A DNA stretch of 64,000 nt from a virus (taxonomy: Duplodnaviria > Caudoviricetes), in IMG/VR virus record IMGVR_UViG_3300028591_000109, positions 1 to 64,000 of that record, one strand, 5' to 3'. The notes beneath the pieces are model-generated. The model was not told the DNA's origin, made no database searches, and saw only the letters and a program-made list of their open reading frames with translations. This document shows, piece after piece, positions 5,873 to 62,900 of the stretch (positions within the stretch are counted from its first letter, which is position 1; each line of letters starts with the position of its first letter). The translations under genes were made by a program, and so were the position numbers.

Positions 5873-5944
5873 TTGCGGAAGATGGGTTCGCACCATCGAC
5901 CTCCGGGTTATGAGCCCGGCGAGCTACTACTGCTCCATTCCGCG
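5873..5944 (-). tRNA. tRNA-Met(CAT), initiator type
   Basis: Cloverleaf CGCGGAA/TTCCGCA with C1:A72 mismatch; anticodon stem CCGGG/CCCGG, loop CTCATAA; TAACTTTG promoter at ~5985. Confidence 0.9.
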
Positions 5945-15239: not shown

Positions 15240-15310
15240 AGGAGATTGGTGTAATGGCAGCACATGAGATTCTGACTCTCAGGGCAGGGGTTCGAGCCCT
15301 CTATCTCCTA
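15240..15310 (+). tRNA. tRNA-Gln(CTG)
   Basis: AGGAGAT/ATCTCCT acceptor stem; D-arm TGGTGTAATGGCAGCAC; anticodon arm TGAGA-TTCTGAC-TCTCA; T-loop GGTTCGAG. Confidence 0.85.
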
Positions 15311-16460: not shown

Positions 16461-16767
16461 GGGGGTATTCTGGTTTTGATTGCTGATGGAAGGCAAGGAA
16501 TCGTGCAGGCAGTCATGCCTTGAAATGGCAGAACAAATAAACGCTAAGGTTGTCGATATGACTCCCCGCGCCCAGATGCTGGCAGCAGCATAAGCGCCTC
16601 GCGGGTGGCTTGCGAAGGAACATAAAGGCCACGGCTCACGTTTTCCGCGTTTTCTCAAAATGCGGTGGTGGAACGCTCGCCCGACAAGAGTCTGGTCAGC
16701 CCCGACGCACGTGATGAAGTTCCTATAATAAGTCAGTAAGACGAGGGTTCGACTCCCTCTACCTCCA
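16461..16767 (+). ncRNA. ssrA: tmRNA (tag peptide AKVVDMTPRAQMLAAA)
   Basis: GGGGGTA/TACCTCC-A acceptor stem with G3:U70; 5' TTCTGGTTTTGA; 3' T-arm GAGGGTTCGACTCCCTC; tag ORF 16543-16593 after AATAAAC ending in LAAA-stop. Confidence 0.9.
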
Positions 16768-16817
16768 CGAATAAACCGGGTTTCGGCCCATAGTATTAAC
16801 TTAATTTTTATGCAACG

Positions 16818-26488: not shown

Positions 26489-26974
26489 CTATAACACACA
26501 TTTGCGCCCGCCTCCTTTTCTGATTCTGTTCATTTCCAGTTGCAATCTTCGCCTTATACGCGGGTAGTTGGCGATAGGGAAGCTGTAGTACACATCGCAC
26601 TTGTTGGCGAATGCGGCCCACTTGCCATCGCTGGTGACGGCCACCAGCCGCATTTCCTGCATCTTCTTCCTGCGCTTCTTCTCCTTGCGGGGTAGCCGCT
26701 GCGGGCGGAGCCTGTACTCCTGGCGCGGAGTCAGCCTGGGCGGCTCATCGGCTGCCGTGGCCTCCATGCTGTATGTGCGGATGATGTGAGGCCCCCACCC
26801 TTGGCCGTCGCCGCTGCCGTCCGATTTGTCATCCAGCGGCTTCAGGCTTACCCTGTAGCCTTCCAGTTTGTCGGCTTTGTCAAAGACTTCCTCGACGTTG
26901 CACTTCACTGACTCCTGAATCCTGTCCAGGTCTTCGTCCGTCAGCTGGTATATGCCTGTGGTGATTTCTTTCAT
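26489..26974 (-). CDS. Hypothetical protein
   Basis: ATGA overlap with the upstream gene; 5' half duplicated at 24860-25075. Confidence 0.7.
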   Translation of the reverse strand: MKEITTGIYQLTDEDLDRIQESVKCNVEEVFDKADKLEGYRVSLKPLDDKSDGSGDGQGWGPHIIRTYSMEATAADEPPRLTPRQEYRLRPQRLPRKEKKRRKKMQEMRLVAVTSDGKWAAFANKCDVYYSFPIANYPRIRRRLQLEMNRIRKGGGRKCVL

Positions 26975-27363
26975 ACGCTGTCCTCCTTTTCTTTCTTCGG
27001 CACAAGGTCGCTGATATACGCCCAGCGTTCCATGTGCCAGTTCTCCCAGTCGGCGGCGATGCCACCGGCGGCAGGGGCCAGCATGTCACCGTCGGCATAA
27101 TACTTCCCCGCCGTACCGCAGCCGTCGCCCTCGTCAATCAGTATCTGGCTTTCGTCATCGGGCCGCTCAGTCTTCGGGTGCCAGACACGCGACTGCTGGA
27201 ACATAGCGCCCACCTCCAGGTATTCCCTGACGGCATCCTCGGGGATAGGGTACTCCCAGTCGTTCTTATGATAGGCATAAAATCCGTGTCCACAAATCAT
27301 CGTTGCCAGCTCTTCAAGCGAGTCGGCCATCTGCATAAGCTGTCTGTTAGATTCCCGTATCAT
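26971..27363 (-). CDS. Hypothetical protein (first gene of the leftward array)
   Basis: Start at MIRES; WHP..ERP...RWAYISDL phage-type motif. Confidence 0.7.
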   Translation of the reverse strand: MIRESNRQLMQMADSLEELATMICGHGFYAYHKNDWEYPIPEDAVREYLEVGAMFQQSRVWHPKTERPDDESQILIDEGDGCGTAGKYYADGDMLAPAAGGIAADWENWHMERWAYISDLVPKKEKEDSV

Positions 27364-27383
27364 ACATGAGCAAACAAAAAAAT

Positions 27384-27549
27384 ATCGGCCACACGTGGGC
27401 GGTGTCAAGTCCTCTGTGCGATTTGGACTCCGGGAGGCTTTCGCCTTCCCGACGCCGGCGGTGTGGCCGATGGGTAATTATTCTATAAATTATGGCAAAC
27501 AATAATGCCGCTCAGGGTGGTAGCGGCATCACCGCACAGATGGTTTGAC
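27384..27549 (-). ncRNA. Structured leader RNA, left copy (c4/CI-like antisense/attenuator)
   Basis: 11-bp outer stem; inner GGGAAGGC-GAAA-GCCTCCC hairpin; loop CGCACAGA..TTGAC complementary to its own 5' GTCAA..TCTGTGCG; followed by a T run. Confidence 0.65.
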
Positions 27550-27665
27550 GGTGCAAAGATACGGAAAAGATTCCGAACGACAAAAAATAATACCGAAATA
27601 TACCGAAAAATTCCGAAAATTTTGTTGGCTGATTCCGAAAATTGTTTTATCTTTGCACCGTCAAA
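27544..27665. promoter_or_regulatory. Back-to-back Bacteroidota promoters with T(A/T)CCGAA operator-like repeats
   Basis: Perfect inverted TTTGACGGTGCAAAGATA / TATCTTTGCACCGTCAAA; five T(A/T)CCGAA copies at 27571, 27591, 27601, 27611 and 27633. Confidence 0.75.
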
Positions 27666-27843
27666 CATACTCAATGCGGGCAAAGGCCTCGCAATACATA
27701 CTTACTTGCAGCGGCGGGGCTCTGTGCCAACAATCATCAGAGACAACAAACAGAATCATATCGGTCACAACCGCGTCGGGAAGGCGAAAGCCTCCCGGAG
27801 TTCGCAGCATTGAGGAACTTGACAGCGCGTAGTTGTGGCCGAT
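27660..27843 (+). ncRNA. Structured leader RNA, right copy
   Basis: Outer stem 27760-27771/27832-27843; same GAAA hairpin; loop GCATTGAG..TTGAC complementary to its own 5' GTCAA..CTCAATGC. Confidence 0.65.
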
Positions 27844-27860
27844 TATATATATAATAAGGT

Positions 27861-28115
27861 ATGACCAGAGAACAGCAGATAGCCCGTTGGGCGGCAGTCG
27901 TTGACATCGTGCTGACCGCCGAGAACAACATTCCGGAAGAGGAGAAGCAGGCGCTCATAGTTGCCAAAGGCGCGGGCCACAGCTTGGAGCAGCGGGCCAT
28001 CGAGCGATATATCCACGCCGTCGCCACTGAGATTGTTGAGCACGGCGGCATGGCCTTCGAGGGCGACGGCGAGAGTGAAAATGACGGACTGATTGACCCT
28101 TACAATGGAGACTGA
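27861..28115 (+). CDS. Hypothetical protein (first gene of the rightward array)
   Basis: ORF directly after the leader RNA. Confidence 0.7.
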   Translation: MTREQQIARWAAVVDIVLTAENNIPEEEKQALIVAKGAGHSLEQRAIERYIHAVATEIVEHGGMAFEGDGESENDGLIDPYNGD

Positions 28116-46400: not shown

Positions 46401-47357
46401 ATGATTGAACCCGACAACATTTACAACATGGACTGCCTCGAAGGGCTGCGGCAGATGGAGGACGAGACGGTGGACTGCTGCGTTACGTCGCCGCCCTACT
46501 TCGCCCTGCGCGACTACGGCTGCGAGGGGCAGATAGGACTGGAGCAGTCGCCGGAGGAGTACATCGCCCGGCTCTGCGACGTGTTCCGCGAGGTGCTGCG
46601 CGTGATGAAGCCCGAGGCGACGTGCTGGGTGGTCATCGGCGACACCTACAACTGTTACCGTGGTGCCACCACCCGCCAATATTACGACACGAAGTTCGCT
46701 GGAGAAAGCGGGCACCCTGCCCGTCCATCGGGCTTCGGGCTGGAATGCAAGAATCTGAAAGACAAAGACCTGATAGGCATACCATGGATGCTGGCCTTTG
46801 CCCTGCGCGGCATGGGCTTCTATCTGCGGCAGGACATCATCTGGCAGAAGCCGAACCCGATGCCGGAGAGCGTGAAGAACCGCTGTACCAAGTCGCACGA
46901 GTACATCTTCCTGCTTACCAAGCAGCCGCGCTACTACTTCAGCGTAGATGCGCTGCGCGAGCCTGCCAATACCGGCATCCGTGCCCACGAGTACAACCAC
47001 CGAAAGGTGAAATTTACCGTGCCAGGGCACCGCCAGATGCAGTTCCGTGGCGGCAATCAGAGCGACGGCTTCCGCAACAAGCGCGACGTGTGGCAGATAC
47101 TGGTCAAGCCCGGCTATGAGGGCCACCACGCCACCTTCCCCGTGGAGCTGCCCCTGCAGTGCATTGCCCTCGGCTGTCCGCAAGGCGGTCTGGTGCTCGA
47201 CCCTTTCATGGGCACGGCCACCACTGCCGTCGCCGCCTACCGCATCAGCCGCCACTATGTTGGCTTCGAGCTGTCACCCGACTATCACGCTATCTGTCTG
47301 GAGCGCCTGCGCCAGGAGCGACAGCAGCAGCGACTGGAGTTTGATGAGGAAGAATGA
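46401..47357 (+). CDS. Amino-methyltransferase (N4C/N6A, beta class)
   Basis: Motif IV TSPPY precedes motif I VLDPFMG; IIWQKPN; HHATFP. Confidence 0.9.
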   Translation: MIEPDNIYNMDCLEGLRQMEDETVDCCVTSPPYFALRDYGCEGQIGLEQSPEEYIARLCDVFREVLRVMKPEATCWVVIGDTYNCYRGATTRQYYDTKFAGESGHPARPSGFGLECKNLKDKDLIGIPWMLAFALRGMGFYLRQDIIWQKPNPMPESVKNRCTKSHEYIFLLTKQPRYYFSVDALREPANTGIRAHEYNHRKVKFTVPGHRQMQFRGGNQSDGFRNKRDVWQILVKPGYEGHHATFPVELPLQCIALGCPQGGLVLDPFMGTATTAVAAYRISRHYVGFELSPDYHAICLERLRQERQQQRLEFDEEE

Positions 47358-47432: not shown

Positions 47433-47873
47433 ATGGAAAATTGGATTTTAGTTAAAAACCTGGAAGGCAAAGATATAAAAGTTCGCCAGAGACGGGCTTA
47501 CGGTGACATCTTTGTTGACGAGCAAGGTAAGGAATACCTGGCGAATGTTCTTGACTTTACCGGCGCACGTCTTGCGATACCCGACTTCAACGAACAGAAT
47601 AAGGAGAGCCTGAATGCGCTGAAGGATATGATGAAGTCGATGGACGCCAAGGCTATTGCCGACCACAAGGCCGTGATTGCCGAGTTCGAGTATTGGAGAA
47701 AGCTGCGTAGTGAAATTTTCATGGAAATGTATCGCGACCACTTGGCCAAAAACGGCAGCAGAATGTCTGAGGACGATCTGCTGAACAAGGCGAAGTACCT
47801 TGTCAATCAGCTATGGCAACAAGACCAGGATTTCATATCTGACAAAAAGGTGTTTCATATTCCTGTCAAATGA
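47433..47873 (+). CDS. Hypothetical protein
   Basis: Co-oriented ORF with ATGA overlap to the next gene. Confidence 0.7.
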   Translation: MENWILVKNLEGKDIKVRQRRAYGDIFVDEQGKEYLANVLDFTGARLAIPDFNEQNKESLNALKDMMKSMDAKAIADHKAVIAEFEYWRKLRSEIFMEMYRDHLAKNGSRMSEDDLLNKAKYLVNQLWQQDQDFISDKKVFHIPVK

Positions 47874-49516
47874 ATAAAAAATTAACGCGCATGAAACAAA
47901 TAACTGCATTATACATCGACCTGTTCTGCGGGGCAGGCGGCACGTCGAGCGGCGTGGAGTATGCGCGGCTGGACGGGAGGAAGTGCGCCGAGGTGGTGGC
48001 GTGCGTCAACCACGACGCGAATGCCATCAAGTCGCACAAGGCAAACCATCCGCACACGCTCCACTTCACCGAGGACATCCGCACACTGGAGCTGTCGCCG
48101 ATGTTGAAGCATCTGGAGAAGAAGCGCCGGCAGTACCCCAAGGCAAAGGTGGTGCTGTGGGCGAGCCTTGAATGCACGAATTTCTCGAAGGCGAAGGGCG
48201 GACAGCCGCGCGATGCCGACAGCCGGACGCTGGCCGACCACCTGTTTCGCTACATCGAGGCGCTGCAGCCCGACTATATCCAGATTGAGAACGTGGAAGA
48301 GTTTATGTGCTGGGGTGCGCTCGACGAGAACGGCAAGCCCGTGAGCCGCGACCAGGGCAGCGACTACCTGCGGTGGGTGAGACAGGTGCAGGCCTACGGC
48401 TACGACTTCGACTGGCACGTGCTGAACGCTGCCGACTTCGGGGCCTACACAAGCCGTAAGCGCTTCTTCGGGCTGTTTGCTAAGAAGGGACTGCCGATAG
48501 CGTTCCCACATCAGACGTATGCCAAGCAGACCGTGGCTTTTGCGTCGCAGGCCGTCGGCAACCTCTTCCCCGACCAATACAAGCCGTGGCGGGCCGTGCG
48601 CGAGGTGCTCGACCTCGACGACGACGGCGAGAGCATCTTTGTGCGCCGCAAGCCGCTATGCGAGAAGACGCTGGAGCGCATCTATGCCGGACTGGTGAAG
48701 TTCGTGGCGGGAGGCAAGAAGCAGCACGAGGCGTGGATATTGAAGTACAACTCGATGAACCAGCAGAACCACCACAATGCGCCGTCCATCGACGAGCCGT
48801 GCCCCACGGTGGCTTGTCAGAACAGACTCGGACTGGTGAAGTGCCAGTTCCTCTCGAAGCAGTTCAGTGGCGACCCCGACAGCAAGAACATCGACATCGA
48901 GCAGCCCGCCGGCACCGTGACCACCATCGACCACCATGCCTTTGTGACGGCATACTATGGTAACGGATTCAACTCGTCGATTGACAGTCCGGCGCCCACC
49001 GTTACCACCAAGGACCGGATTTCGCTGGTAACGACAAAGTTCATGGATAACCAGTACGGCAAGAGTAAGCCGTCATCTATCGACGGGCCAGCGCCGACGC
49101 TTGTCAACAATCCCAAGCAGAAGATTGTGTCGGCGCAGTACCTGATGAACCCTCAGTACCAGAGCAACGGCGGCAGCATCGACAACCCTTGCTTCACGTT
49201 GATAGCGCGGATGGACAAGATGCCGCCTTATCTGATTACCACCAAGGAGGGTGCGGTGGTCATCGCCATCTATGAGAGCGACAGCCCGTGGACGCGCAAG
49301 GTGAAGGAGTTCATGGCCGCATACGGTATCGTTGACATCTGTATGCGTATGCTGAATATCGGCGAGCTGAAGCGCATCATGGGCTTCCCCACCGACTACG
49401 TGCTCATCGGCACCCAGGCCGAACAGAAGAAATACATCGGCAATGCCGTGGAGGTTAACATGAGCCGCGTGCTCTGCGAAGCCCTATGCAGGAAAATTAA
49501 GAATATGAACAAATAA
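47870..49516 (+). CDS. C5-cytosine DNA methyltransferase with five TRD-like repeats
   Basis: DLFCGAGG, ASLEC, IENV, R.R.F, RML...EL..IMGFP, IGNAV; repeats S/D-I-x-x-P-x-x-T. Confidence 0.9.
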   Translation: MNKKLTRMKQITALYIDLFCGAGGTSSGVEYARLDGRKCAEVVACVNHDANAIKSHKANHPHTLHFTEDIRTLELSPMLKHLEKKRRQYPKAKVVLWASLECTNFSKAKGGQPRDADSRTLADHLFRYIEALQPDYIQIENVEEFMCWGALDENGKPVSRDQGSDYLRWVRQVQAYGYDFDWHVLNAADFGAYTSRKRFFGLFAKKGLPIAFPHQTYAKQTVAFASQAVGNLFPDQYKPWRAVREVLDLDDDGESIFVRRKPLCEKTLERIYAGLVKFVAGGKKQHEAWILKYNSMNQQNHHNAPSIDEPCPTVACQNRLGLVKCQFLSKQFSGDPDSKNIDIEQPAGTVTTIDHHAFVTAYYGNGFNSSIDSPAPTVTTKDRISLVTTKFMDNQYGKSKPSSIDGPAPTLVNNPKQKIVSAQYLMNPQYQSNGGSIDNPCFTLIARMDKMPPYLITTKEGAVVIAIYESDSPWTRKVKEFMAAYGIVDICMRMLNIGELKRIMGFPTDYVLIGTQAEQKKYIGNAVEVNMSRVLCEALCRKIKNMNK

Positions 49517-54809: not shown

Positions 54810-55880
54810 ATGACACATGCATCAGTATTCAGCGGCATCGGCGGCCCGGAGGTGGCGGCAAGCATGCTCGGATGGGAGAACCTGTTCCACTGCGAGATCA
54901 ATCCCTTCGGTCGCGCCGTGCTCGACTACTGGTACCCTAACGCAGAATCGTATGAAGACATCACAAAGACAGACTTCACAGAGTGGCGCGGACGCATCGA
55001 CGTGCTCACAGGCGGATTCCCCTGCCAGCCGTTCAGTTTTGCCGGGAAGCGACGAGGCGCGGATGATGACCGCTACCTCTGGCCTTTCATGTTTAAGTGC
55101 ATCGACCAGATCAGACCCACTTGGGTCGTTGGTGAAAACGTTGCTGGCATCGTCACGATGGTCGAGCAGGGCCAGACTATTGACATGGCGGACGCGCCAA
55201 CTTTGTTCGACGAGGACGGTGCCGTTCACCGATACGAATACCGCAGCACCTTCACCCTCGAACGAATCTGCCGTGACCTCGAAACGCACGGATACGATGT
55301 CCAGCCGGTGCTTATTCCAGCTTGTGCCGTCGGAGCCCCTCACAGACGAGACCGAGTGTTCATCGTCGGACGTAGAATTTCTGCCGACACCGAAAGCGTC
55401 GGACAACTCGACGGGGATAGGCAAGAACGAAGTGCCATACTTGGACGGTCACATCTGGAGGCGACCCAACGGGGTGTCGATGCGACTGAGTTCTATGGCA
55501 AATCGGAATCTCCTGCCGACACCTCAGATGCAGGACTACAACACGGGCATCAGTCAGAAGGCGAAGGCTGCAAAACTGGAGCGATACAAGGACAGGGGCA
55601 TAATCCCTTCTGGGACGTATATGCTCAGGCAGATGGCTATCGAGGGGAAACTGCCGAAGCCGAATGGTCTGGTTGTGCCGGAAACGGACGGTGGCAACAC
55701 TTCCCGACTGTCTCCCCTGTTCACCGAGGAAATGATGGGCTTCCCTTTGATGTGGACTGCCTTACCATACCTTTCACCAAATGGCGCAACGAGGCCCTCA
55801 AAGCCTACGGCAACGCCATCGTCCCGCAAGTGATGTACGAGATATTCCGCGCTATCGAGCAAGTAGAAAACGAAAGATAA
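54810..55880 (+). CDS. C5-cytosine methyltransferase alpha polypeptide (motifs I-VIII and X, no motif IX)
   Basis: SVFSGIGG, GGFPCQ, ENV, PHRRDR, YGNAIVP. Confidence 0.9.
   Translation: MTHASVFSGIGGPEVAASMLGWENLFHCEINPFGRAVLDYWYPNAESYEDITKTDFTEWRGRIDVLTGGFPCQPFSFAGKRRGADDDRYLWPFMFKCIDQIRPTWVVGENVAGIVTMVEQGQTIDMADAPTLFDEDGAVHRYEYRSTFTLERICRDLETHGYDVQPVLIPACAVGAPHRRDRVFIVGRRISADTESVGQLDGDRQERSAILGRSHLEATQRGVDATEFYGKSESPADTSDAGLQHGHQSEGEGCKTGAIQGQGHNPFWDVYAQADGYRGETAEAEWSGCAGNGRWQHFPTVSPVHRGNDGLPFDVDCLTIPFTKWRNEALKAYGNAIVPQVMYEIFRAIEQVENER
54817..55833 (+). CDS. Overlapping +1-frame beta polypeptide carrying TRD repeats and motif IX (true start uncertain)
   Basis: 338 codons open; LPTPKASD, LPTPQMQD, RLSPLFTEEMMGFPLMWT. 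Confidence 0.7.
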   Translation: MHQYSAASAARRWRQACSDGRTCSTARSIPSVAPCSTTGTLTQNRMKTSQRQTSQSGADASTCSQADSPASRSVLPGSDEARMMTATSGLSCLSASTRSDPLGSLVKTLLASSRWSSRARLLTWRTRQLCSTRTVPFTDTNTAAPSPSNESAVTSKRTDTMSSRCLFQLVPSEPLTDETECSSSDVEFLPTPKASDNSTGIGKNEVPYLDGHIWRRPNGVSMRLSSMANRNLLPTPQMQDYNTGISQKAKAAKLERYKDRGIIPSGTYMLRQMAIEGKLPKPNGLVVPETDGGNTSRLSPLFTEEMMGFPLMWTALPYLSPNGATRPSKPTATPSSRK

Positions 55881-59925: not shown

Positions 59926-62900
59926 ATGAGCAGACGAAATCAAGACTTAGTGTCAAGAGTAAAATTCGAGGTAGACTCCCGTATGGCCAGCGCCTCGATG
60001 AAGGCCCTGCAGAAAGAGTCGGCAGACCTGAACGAGCGTATCAACGAAGTGAACGCCAGCATCAAGGCCCTCGGCGACGTGCCCGACGACAACCCCACAC
60101 TGCAGGCATACCGCAAGCAGCTGCGCGGACTGGAGAGCGACCTGAAGGACGTGAACACCACGATGAAGGACTACACCCGTGGCGTGAAGGCAGCAGGCGA
60201 ACTCTACCGCCACTACGCCATGGGCAACATCGAGGACATGAGCATCAAGGCCATACGCGCCGGCGTGAACGGCATGAAGAAACGGCTCGACAACCTGAAG
60301 GCGGGCGGCGACCCGGGCGACGCTGAGGAGATGCGACTGATAGAGGCCATCACCACCGAGGCCGACGTGGTGGTGAAGCGCTTCAAGACCGACTACCAGA
60401 ACGTGGTGGAGGAGATAGCCCGGGGCGGCACCGTCACCGAGCAGACCCTGAAGCGCACACGCGACGGGCTGGCCGACCTGATGCAGACCGCCGAGACCGA
60501 GGCCGAGAAGAACGAGCTGACCAACTACTGGCAGAAGGTGGGGGCAGCTATCGAGGCCGTAGCCGTGGAGAACCGCCGTCTGCGCGGCGAGGTGGCCGAC
60601 CGCGAGGAAGCCATGCGCATAGCCTACGCCACCGACCACGACGGCAGTCAGCAGGCCATACACGATGCCGAGGCACGCGCCGATGCCGCCCGCCGCGAGA
60701 ACGACGAGCTGCGCCAGCGGCTCGACCTGAAGCAGCAGCAGCGCCGCGAGCTGGAGCAGAAGATGGAAAACAATAGCATCCAGCAGCAGACGCTCACGGA
60801 CCGGCGCGACGAACTGAAGGCACAGGAGAAGGAGGACCGCGCCATACGCAAGCAGCGCGTGGACGATGCCAACAAGGAGCTGAACGCCGCCCGCCGTGCC
60901 GCAAAGACCCAGCAGCAAGCCTACGACGAGCAGAAGCAGACCGTGGAGAAACTGCGCACCGAAGTGCAGGGGCTGACCGACGACATCAGGAAGATGGGGG
61001 AGGTGAAGGCGGAGCCGAAGATTGACACGAGTAAATTGGAACGTCAGTTGGAGGTAGCCAAGCGCGACCTCGCTGAGATAGCCGAGGACGAGCGCAAGGC
61101 CAATGAGGCATTGAAGCAGTTCGGCATTACCACAGCCGACATCACCGACGATGCCAAGTTGCAGGCCGCCGCCGAGAAAGCCCTGAAAGAGGAAGAGGAA
61201 TCGCGGCTCGAACTGGCCAAGCAGATGCTGCAGGTACGCAAGCAGATAGGCCAGGAGGAACTGAAAGACTCACGCATCGTAGGCTCAAAGGACACGCAGG
61301 CTTTCTATGCCAAGAACAAGGGCGTGCTCGACGATGAATATTGGAAAAGCGAGGCGGGCGGCGGCAGCATCAGTCGCATGTATAAATACCTGAACGACAT
61401 CAGCGACGACCCCGAAGCCAAGGCTGAGTTCAAGGAGCAGGTGGGTATGACCGTGAAGGATGCCATGCGAGTGGCCGGCCAGCGGATGCGCGAGGTGGTG
61501 CAGGAGGCCATGAAGCGCGGCATCAAGATTGACGATGCGCTCAGCGACTTCGCCGACGGCTACGGTCACGGCCCTGCCACGAAGATTGAAGAGTTCATGC
61601 GCGAGTTCAACGAGACCGTTGGCGATAAGGAAGACGAACTAATAAAGAAGCGTCGTGAAAAGCTCGATGCCATTGCCGATGTCGTCTATGATCCAGGCGA
61701 GGAAATGGCATCACGCGACGAACGTCTGCGTCTGGCCAAGGAATCGCTGAAAGGCGTGGGCGAAGGCTACTACGGCAACGGCAAGCCCCTCTCCGAATCA
61801 TATAAGGAACAACAGGCAGAGGTGACCCGTCTGGAGAGTGAGATGAAGAAACTCAGCGAGACGAGTCAGCAGTCTGCCCAATCCTCCGAGCAGCTGGCAC
61901 AGAAGCAGGAACAGCTCTCGCAGAAGACCGCCGAGCTGAACCAGCAGCAAGACAAGCTGAACGGAATGGTGGACGAGACCGTGACCGCCAACCAGCGCTT
62001 AGCCAAAGCCGAACAGGAACAGACCGACGCCCGCAACGCACAGGCCGAAGCCAAGGAACACGAGGGCGAGGCCGTCAAGAAAGTGGAAGACGAACTGCGC
62101 GGACTCACCGACGAGCAGCTGAAGAACGCCCAGGCATACAGCCACCTCACCGAGGAAATCAACACCGACACCGCCGCCATGCAGCGCAACATCACCACCG
62201 AGCAGGAAGCCACCCGCGAGGCCGACCGACTGCGCTCCGGCAGCATCGACAAGATGGAGCAGGCACTGGCTCGCCTCCGTGAGTCGAACCGCAAGCTCGA
62301 CCCCACCATCGACAAGGAAGAGTGGGAACGCGGCGAACGCGCCATCGGCCAGCTCAACCTCCGCCTCGAAGAACTGAAGAAGCAGTCGGCAGAACTACGC
62401 CGCGAGCCCGTGCTCGACATGATGACCCAGCGCATGCAGTCGCTCGGCACCCTCTCCAGCGACACCCTCACCGAGACCAAGAAATTCTGGGAAACGATGG
62501 TAGCCGGCGCACAGAAAGGCTCGACGGAGCTGGCCGACTACGAGCAGCACCTGAAGAGCATCGCCCTGGAGGAGCAGGCCCGCGTCCGCGAACAGGGACG
62601 TGAAGCCTTCGCCTTCTTCCAGCGCGAGGACTACCGCCGCACTAACGCCGCCGACACCGAGGAGCAGCGCAAGGCGCTCGTTGCCTACCGCGATGCGCTG
62701 CCAGCCGACGCCATCGACCACATAGAGGCCATCAACGCCCTGCTGGAGAAGCATGCGCAGTTTGTCAAGGAGGCTGCGGGCGAGTGGATGTCGCTCGAAA
62801 AGGCTATGGAACTGGCATCGAAGGCGGGCACCGACCAGTTTGCCGGTTCGGCAAAAGACATACAGCTCGCCACGCAGTCGCTGGAGCGGCAGCGCGACAC

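Follow-up and report, generated by a model that had tools for sequence, protein, structure and literature searches.

To our knowledge, coliphages P1/P7 and P4 are the only phages whose RNA-based immunity has been elucidated; one of the P4 termination sites is Rho-dependent. The replication of plasmids pT181, pIP501 and pAMbeta1 is controlled by antisense-RNA transcription attenuation. The present analysis concerns a 64,000-nt stretch of DNA (hereafter the window), which corresponds to positions 1 to 64,000 of the Caudoviricetes record IMGVR_UViG_3300028591_000109, a virus of 141,567 bp rated complete by CheckV. An intergenic region of this window, located at 27364-27860 between the start of a leftward gene (27363) and that of a rightward gene (27861), contains two divergently oriented c4-type elements. 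Judged from its sequence, this region is a pair of diverged copies of a P1 immI-type leader module.

In P4, premature transcription termination is brought about by the CI RNA, which pairs with two sites, seqA upstream and seqC downstream (PMC4825925); the title of reference 47 in that article describes the P4 termination sites as antisense RNA-dependent. RNase P cleaves the precursor of P1 c4 (Hartmann 1995, cited in PMC5320573), and the P1 and P4 RNAs act in trans after processing (PMC5320573, PMC8198154, PMC4825925). In the P1/P7 system, the released RNA measures ~77 nt and confers immunity. The order of elements in the P1 record (AF234172) is promoter P1c4, the sites a1 (48255-48261) and b1 (48269-48276), both annotated as ‘putative’, c4 (48343-48419), and a2/b2 just before icd. 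The P1 c4 RNA and the c4-2 motif belong to the same Rfam clan, CL00128 (C4, c4-2, c4-a1b1). The c4-2 motif comes from Weinberg et al. 2017, who describe it as likely to be a remote homolog of an RNA already known (PMC5737381).

Results

Two c4-type elements in a divergent intergenic region

The right element spans 27758-27846 on the plus strand and matches the Rfam family c4-2 (RF02944) over all 79 model positions, with 34 bits and an E-value of 4.8e-5; the gathering cut-off of this family is 41 bits. It has the same helices as the c4-2 model, although its first hairpin is longer (GGGAAGGC-GAAA-GCCTCCC). The left element lies at 27381-27473 on the minus strand. A covariance model, R1, built from five elements, gave 97.6 bits for the right copy and 86.3 bits for the left one, and fold and covariation support both assignments. 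Two relatives found with R1, L066 (45.4 bits) and L046 (44.9 bits), exceed the c4-2 cut-off. Since these belong to the same family alignment, the elements of the window can be considered divergent c4-2 members.

Each element is predicted to fold as a three-way junction of ~88 nt with the plan of the c4 clan: an outer stem and two hairpins, the second with its loop exposed. The outer stem is formed by ATCGGTCACA/TGTGGCCGAT in the right copy (27760-27769/27834-27843, plus strand) and by ATCGGCCACAC/GTGTGGCCGAT in the left one (27384-27394/27461-27471). A stretch of 29 nt that includes the GAAA hairpin is 100% identical between the two copies (27427-27455 and 27773-27801). The loop of the second hairpin exposes GCATTGAG in the right copy (27807-27814, plus strand), with a TTGAC junction at 27819-27823. 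In the left copy it exposes, in the RNA sense, CGCACAGA (27413-27420, read 27420-27413 on the minus strand), with TTGAC at 27404-27408. The folds of both leaders were better than those of all 200 shuffled versions (z = -4.4 in each case). Each element also contains a sigma-70-like match (TTGACA, 16 nt, and GATTAT or GATATT; 10 of 12 positions), at 27819-27846 (+) and 27408-27381 (-). The TTGACA of these matches is the conserved antisense junction box, and in a Bacteroidota host they are probably meaningless.

The elements are complementary to the 5′ ends of their own transcripts

The repeat finder identified two copies of a 19-nt sequence, TATCTTTGCACCGTCAAAC, in perfect inversion, at 27543-27561 (-) and 27648-27666 (+); a preliminary description of the locus had reported this inverted promoter pair with a length of 18 bp. 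The right arm includes a -7 box (TATCTTTG, 27648-27655) and the inferred transcript start, GTCAAAC, from 27660; the left arm contains the -7 box and inferred start of the leftward transcript. The motif made up of promoter and start has two matches in the window, versus 0.01 expected, and the same TATCTTTGCAcCGTCAAA precedes nearly all homologs. We take the -7 box to be a promoter element by comparison with the published Bacteroidota consensus, TAnnTTTG.

The right transcript would begin with GTCAA-ACATA-CTCAATGC (27660-27677, plus strand; 8-mer at 27670-27677), and the left one with GTCAA-ACCA-TCTGTGCG (27533-27549, minus strand; 8-mer at 27540-27533), both resembling the a1/b1 site of P1. Within each copy, the loop and the 3′ junction of the second hairpin are complementary to this bipartite site on the same operon transcript, as is characteristic of the c4 clan. 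Because GTCAA and TTGAC boxes flank both 8-mer pairs, the duplexes are bipartite (5 bp, an internal loop and 8 bp). The predicted duplex energy is -18.7 kcal/mol for the right target with the right loop, and -26.8 kcal/mol for the left target with the left loop. The two copies carry different 8-nt codes. The outer stems, the identical GAAA hairpin and the target/loop 8-mer pairs of the preliminary description were all recovered where it had placed them, and its observation that pairing is preserved despite different codes held. The twin layout is conserved in 12 loci.

The same description had suggested cross-talk between copies by way of CTCTGTGC, a sequence complementary to the left loop. 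This sequence is indeed present in the right leader hairpin (27720-27727), but its complementarity is no better than background. Matches between copies at the twin loci are 6-8 nt long and lie in a conserved GUGCC box, while unrelated leader/loop pairs most commonly reach 6-7 nt, with ~18% of them attaining at least 8 nt.

The likeness to the c4 RNA of P1/P7 (RF01695) is one of both structure and layout. The long outer stem, the tetraloop hairpin, the antisense second loop and the single-stranded antisense junction box are common to both; the RNA is encoded in the leader of its own operon; within the target, the 5′ half is the partner of the junction box and the 3′ half that of the loop. The upstream a1/b1 site directly succeeds the promoter, and a hairpin with a U-run comes next. 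There are also differences: the host phylum and the promoter type are not the same; the junction box is UUGAC in the window and CUGUCAA in P1; the window has two copies with separate codes and divergent promoters, while P1 has one; it lacks an a2/b2 site on the ribosome-binding region; and neither icd nor ant was found among the first genes downstream.

Homologs in Bacteroidota phages and their codes

Relatives were gathered by pattern scans of viral, genome and metagenome collections followed by searches with model R1; the first large ones, L029 and L030, came from a search with the promoter motif. The R1 searches yielded ~100 homologs, 73 of them distinct, from phage contigs of the rumen and gut as well as from assemblies of Prevotellaceae and Rikenellaceae. 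The 141,567-bp record contains only the two copies described. Named hosts include metagenome-assembled genomes (MAGs) of Prevotella sp. recovered from the rumen of roe deer and sheep, one MAG of Rikenellaceae, and an isolate, Hoylesella saccharolytica JCM 17484. The latter (NZ_BAKN01000008.1) contains a canonical c4-2-type element (L166:6363-6443) with a matching site ahead of the next ATG (GTCAAAATCCTTTC...ATG), and could serve as an experimental system. A 23-nt core used as an exact word found no match in viral contigs, and a blastn comparison of the whole intergenic region with 50,697 deposited phage records returned nothing. The 19-nt hairpin by itself retrieved 23 loci, none of which matched R1.

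In an alignment of 77 sequences, 94% of the cells were paired and, for 18 of the 24 pairs, both partners varied. All 500 shuffles fell short of this, and slid controls gave 30-43%. For the pairing of the 5′ end, the initial 26 nt of each transcript were set against its loop/junction region. A strong bipartite duplex was found in 70 of the 71 distinct elements with a recognisable leader, the cognate duplexes having a median of -22 kcal/mol versus -11.7 kcal/mol for non-cognate combinations. The variable cores fall into ~31 code classes. The cognate helix measures 8-13 bp in 29 of these, versus a mean of 5.1 bp for non-cognate pairs. The target and the loop are 76-98 nt apart and always lie on the same transcript; copies that share a genome always differ in code. 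The preliminary description had proposed loop/5′-end covariation in homologs as a check, and the outcome is strongly positive. Specificity is shifted by matched substitutions, as between P1 and P7 (PMC5320573).

Two features argue that this pairing takes place in RNA and not between DNA sites. Several homologs have G-U pairs (GUCAG with UUGAC), and one copy shows a compensated substitution in its constant box, with GTTCA facing TGAAC. The GTTCA target and TGAAC junction are those of L066:12577-12665, which has a short leader of 31 nt.

A natural chimera was also found. The leader of L211:1857-1942 (minus strand) is identical to that of L180:404-492 (plus strand) up to the c4 core, while its loop, start-codon site and first gene differ. 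The 5′ site of L211 consequently matches the c4 of L180 and mismatches its own. This suggests that recombination within the conserved c4 core swapped a cassette made up of code and gene.

The first genes downstream of the relatives are diverse, three of them having GIY-YIG domains. One copy without a start-codon site is followed by a gene for a 439-aa protein (L123:1714-3033, minus strand) whose beginning resembles IS200/IS605-type TnpB/OrfB, as judged by eye from the N-terminus only.

The clade of the window keeps only the 5′ site

In 39 distinct relatives, the code occurs a second time, after TGTCAAAA, in a copy that overlaps the ATG or stops 0-3 nt short of it. Most relatives show the order promoter, a1/b1-like site, hairpin with U-run, c4, and an a2/b2-like site at the start codon. 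These 39 Bacteroidota relatives have the exact layout of P1, a design for translational repression.

No a2/b2-like site was found in the window, or within 50 nt after each element of its clade, and no target site precedes the ATG of the 84-aa gene that follows the right element. A further bipartite target is absent from the 141.5-kb genome, except for a weak match (GTCTA-N6-TCTGTGC) at genome position 138276. This was judged to be due to chance since it lies downstream of the start of a leftward gene and is followed by no ATG. A lone 8-mer at 62508 is in coding-like sequence. The clade comprises 12 divergent twin loci, with 269-309 nt between the elements, and nearly all of them combine CTCAATGC on one flank with TCTGTGCG(G) on the opposite one. 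On the basis of these comparisons, the clade is one that has lost the start-codon site and keeps the 5′ site only.

Leader hairpins and possible termination signals

Both leaders contain a predicted hairpin between the target and the c4-type element. In the left leader it occupies 27493-27530 (minus strand) and is terminator-like: the arms GATGCCGCT/AGCGGCATT (27505-27512/27522-27529) have a folding energy of -12.9 kcal/mol and are followed by a U-rich tail, UAUUGUUUG. Further, a run of seven U residues (27376-27382, minus strand) lies directly 3′ of the left c4 outer stem, together with which it has the shape of an intrinsic terminator. Both of these signals, the hairpin after the target and the T-run after the large stem, had been noticed in the preliminary description. 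The hairpin of the right leader, GGCAAAGGCCTCGC ... GCGGCGGGGCTCTGTGCC (27679-27728, plus strand), has no U-run after it and is kept in the R-type leaders of relatives.

Of 71 leaders among the homologs, 52 possess a hairpin with a U-run, at a distance of 45-60 nt from the start, and in 47 of 71 homologs the element has a T-run of at least four residues behind it. Before the terminator forms, its 5′ arm can base-pair with the 3′ edge of the target (GCGGC/GCCGC, GGGGC/GCCCC, AGTGGC/GCCACT, among others). Across the family, this candidate anti-terminator helix is more stable than in shuffled sequences (mean z = -1.8; 27 of 50 below -1.64). Such pairing has the logic of antisense-triggered attenuation, matching P4. 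In P1, the leader reads GCGG-ACAA-CCGC...GCGGTATTTTTGTGTCC directly after b1. The segment 48269-48324 of AF234172 (L229:170-225) contains a hairpin with a U-run, CCGCAGAT...ATTGCGGTATTTTTGTGTCC, preceded by the small GCGG/CCGC helix; the P1 record annotates no terminator there.

The P4 CI RNA resembles the elements of the window in that it derives from the untranslated leader of the very operon under its control and pairs with a complementary site upstream in the same type of transcript. P4 differs in using the downstream seqC as well, and in having one such RNA instead of two. The Rfam search of the region returned no family other than c4-2 (E up to 10), and homology to CI RNA or IsrK-type RNAs was judged by Rfam only. 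With the plasmids pT181, pIP501 and pAMbeta1, the window would share a small RNA that acts on a nascent 5′ leader, blocking an anti-terminator and favouring an intrinsic terminator in a manner dependent on copy number. In those plasmids, however, the regulator is transcribed from the opposite strand, while in the window it is encoded on the same strand, downstream of its target. Moreover, good support for the anti-terminator comes from the family at large and not from the window.

The spacer and the flanking genes

The promoters are separated by a spacer of 86 bp (27562-27647, no strand assigned) with phased (A/T)(A/T)CCGAAA repeats at 27591, 27601, 27611 and 27633, and variants at ~27570 and ~27560. 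Four of the six matches to this motif in the window fall in the spacer. The array may be a candidate binding site for a protein regulator, going by its sequence. Its position is comparable to that of the C1 operator at the P1 c4 promoter.

The first gene of the right array (27861-28115, plus strand) begins 17 nt past the c4 stem and codes for 84 aa of no known family; neither Pfam nor PHROGs gave a match, and the protein atlas was uninformative. The right array extends for ~30 kb and includes genes for an SPFH protein, a radical SAM protein and several DNA methyltransferases. Among its first five genes, the third codes for an SPFH/Band 7 protein and the fifth for the radical SAM protein, the other three having no family. 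Three of the DNA methyltransferase genes lie at 46401-47357, 47870-49516 and 54810-55880 (PHROGs E-values 5e-73, 6e-74 and 2.5e-69). The left array is short, with five genes running from 27363 down to 24815. Its first gene (26971-27363, minus strand) codes for a 130-aa protein that matches only phrog_32914, of unknown function, in searches of Pfam and PHROGs, the protein atlas again being uninformative. The third of its first four genes codes for a YopX protein, and two have no match. A ParA-like gene and a DnaC-like gene sit upstream. The phage also has a transfer-messenger RNA gene (16461-16770) and two tRNA genes (5873-5944 and 15240-15310), all matching Rfam at the gathering level.

Discussion

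The locus combines a c4-type fold with a matched target at the 5′ end of the same leader, twice and with different codes. We give somewhat better than even chances to the proposal that each c4-type RNA, once released, represses its own type of operon in trans through this 5′ site. The left c4 RNA would probably end at its own stem, given the U7 run that follows it. The right element has no terminator and must be cut out to exist as a small RNA, as RNase P does with P1 c4. Each released RNA would then bind to newly made transcripts of its own type at their 5′ site, be they transcribed from the same replicon or by a superinfecting relative. Binding would lower expression of the operon, such that two independent RNA locks would act on two divergent early/accessory operons. 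In the left leader, the likeliest step would be formation of the hairpin with its U-rich tail, ~45 nt from the start, and with it premature termination, on the pattern of P4. For the right leader, Rho-dependent termination or RNA decay might be involved, both being guesses.

A more specific proposal is that the 5′-end a1/b1 site is a working target at which c4 binding triggers termination in the leader, that this is an ancient module common to P1 and Bacteroidota phages, and that it is the sole mode of action in the clade of the window. From the layouts compared here this seems possible, though we put it forward as tentative and see it as the less probable outcome.

Several observations weigh against these proposals. 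The 34 bits of the right copy are under the c4-2 cut-off, and the left copy has no Rfam match (E up to 10). Model R1, run on P1 immI, fails to detect P1 c4; kinship with P1 thus rests on the Rfam clan, the fold plan and the shared architecture. The genes downstream of the leaders are of unknown function or accessory, and no Ant, KilA or Bro family is found among the first five genes of the right array or the first four of the left one, some of which code for small proteins of unknown fold. With regard to termination, the U-tail of the left leader hairpin is interrupted, and the anti-terminator of this leader (GCGG/CCGC) is no better than in shuffled sequences (z = -0.76; 21 of 100 as stable). 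In the right leader, a U-run is missing behind both the leader hairpin and the c4 stem, so termination cannot be argued for there. In equilibrium folds, the terminator is part of the minimum free energy (MFE) structure in 43 of 52 leaders with the target either blocked or free, RNAduplex having over-extended some of the targets into the terminator arm, so that this comparison says little. Since the terminator forms with or without a free target, the switch would have to be kinetic. Finally, the target and c4 are always on one transcript, which is compatible with a purely cis role.

This last point leads to an alternative that we consider unlikely but that is the best placed of the rivals: a leader structure acting in cis only. 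The 5′ site and the c4 loop would form a long-range pseudoknot that sets messenger RNA stability, processing or read-through of the c4 stem terminator, with neither a trans-acting RNA nor immunity. The location of target and loop always on a shared transcript, separated by 76-98 nt, would fit this explanation, as would the lack of any other target in the genome of the clade, the full-length MFE fold of the left leader, in which the 5′ end is paired with the loop region, and the annotation of P1 a1/b1 merely as ‘putative’ targets. However, the homologous or analogous RNAs of P1 and P4 act in trans once processed, and 39 relatives aim the same loop at a site on the start codon, which is the design of a repressor. 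Further, the 5′ site of L211 matches the c4 of L180 and not its own, indicating that strict pairing in cis is not needed for the element to persist.

It is improbable that the elements are simply processing signals, i.e. tRNA-like folds cut by RNase P or another RNase, with the complementarity at the 5′ end only guiding or timing the cut. The cleavage of the P1 c4 precursor by RNase P and the excision that the right element would require speak for such a role, but a processing signal alone needs neither ~31 matched codes nor a copy of the code on start codons. Very improbable indeed is a function at the DNA level, with the inverted GTCAA-N-8mer pairs as operators or ends of an invertible segment and TTGACA-16-GATTAT as a sigma-70-type promoter: each target/loop pair is an inverted repeat in DNA, both elements contain a sigma-70-like match and a CCGAAA array lies between the promoters, but the surrounding helices covary as RNA, G-U replaces Watson-Crick pairs in several homologs, the relatives have, at the start codon, a third copy that is directly oriented, inversion of the segment would move neither promoter, and Bacteroidota promoters deviate from the sigma-70 consensus.

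Given the curated Rfam fold and the P1-like layout, the locus does not represent a new kind of system. The preliminary description correctly recognised the elements as c4-like, as borne out by the c4-2 match, the same three-way junction and the target topology of P1 immI. It had added that it knew of no description of this arrangement. This does not hold: the fold is that of the curated family c4-2 (clan CL00128), and the upstream a1/b1 sites are annotated in P1. By that description's own standard, the Rfam match reduces the novelty. No published targets or mechanism were found for the computationally predicted c4-2 motif, the supplement of Weinberg et al. 2017 not having been covered. Within that same scope, four aspects appear to be new: the matched 5′ sites through ~31 codes, a clade with the 5′ site only, the conserved twin arrangement with two separate codes, and a leader hairpin module shared with P1.

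The ~31 matched codes, always distinct within a genome, make up a natural set of separate antisense/target pairs. In addition, the clade that includes this 141-kb phage, which has plasmid-type partition genes, keeps the 5′ site alone, showing that the upstream site is under selection by itself. This clade also offers a clean system in which to study the role of the a1/b1 sites labelled ‘putative’ in the P1 record, and the hairpin and U-run that follow the upstream site, in P1 too, point to a conserved termination step. If the proposal of termination at the 5′ site is true, it would explain those sites of P1. If true, two non-interacting codes would also constitute a protein-free double lock on two divergent early operons of a large Bacteroidota phage-plasmid. 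Elements of this family might be used as programmable repressors for the genetics of Bacteroides and Prevotella, and their codes to predict the superinfection immunity groups of gut and rumen phages.

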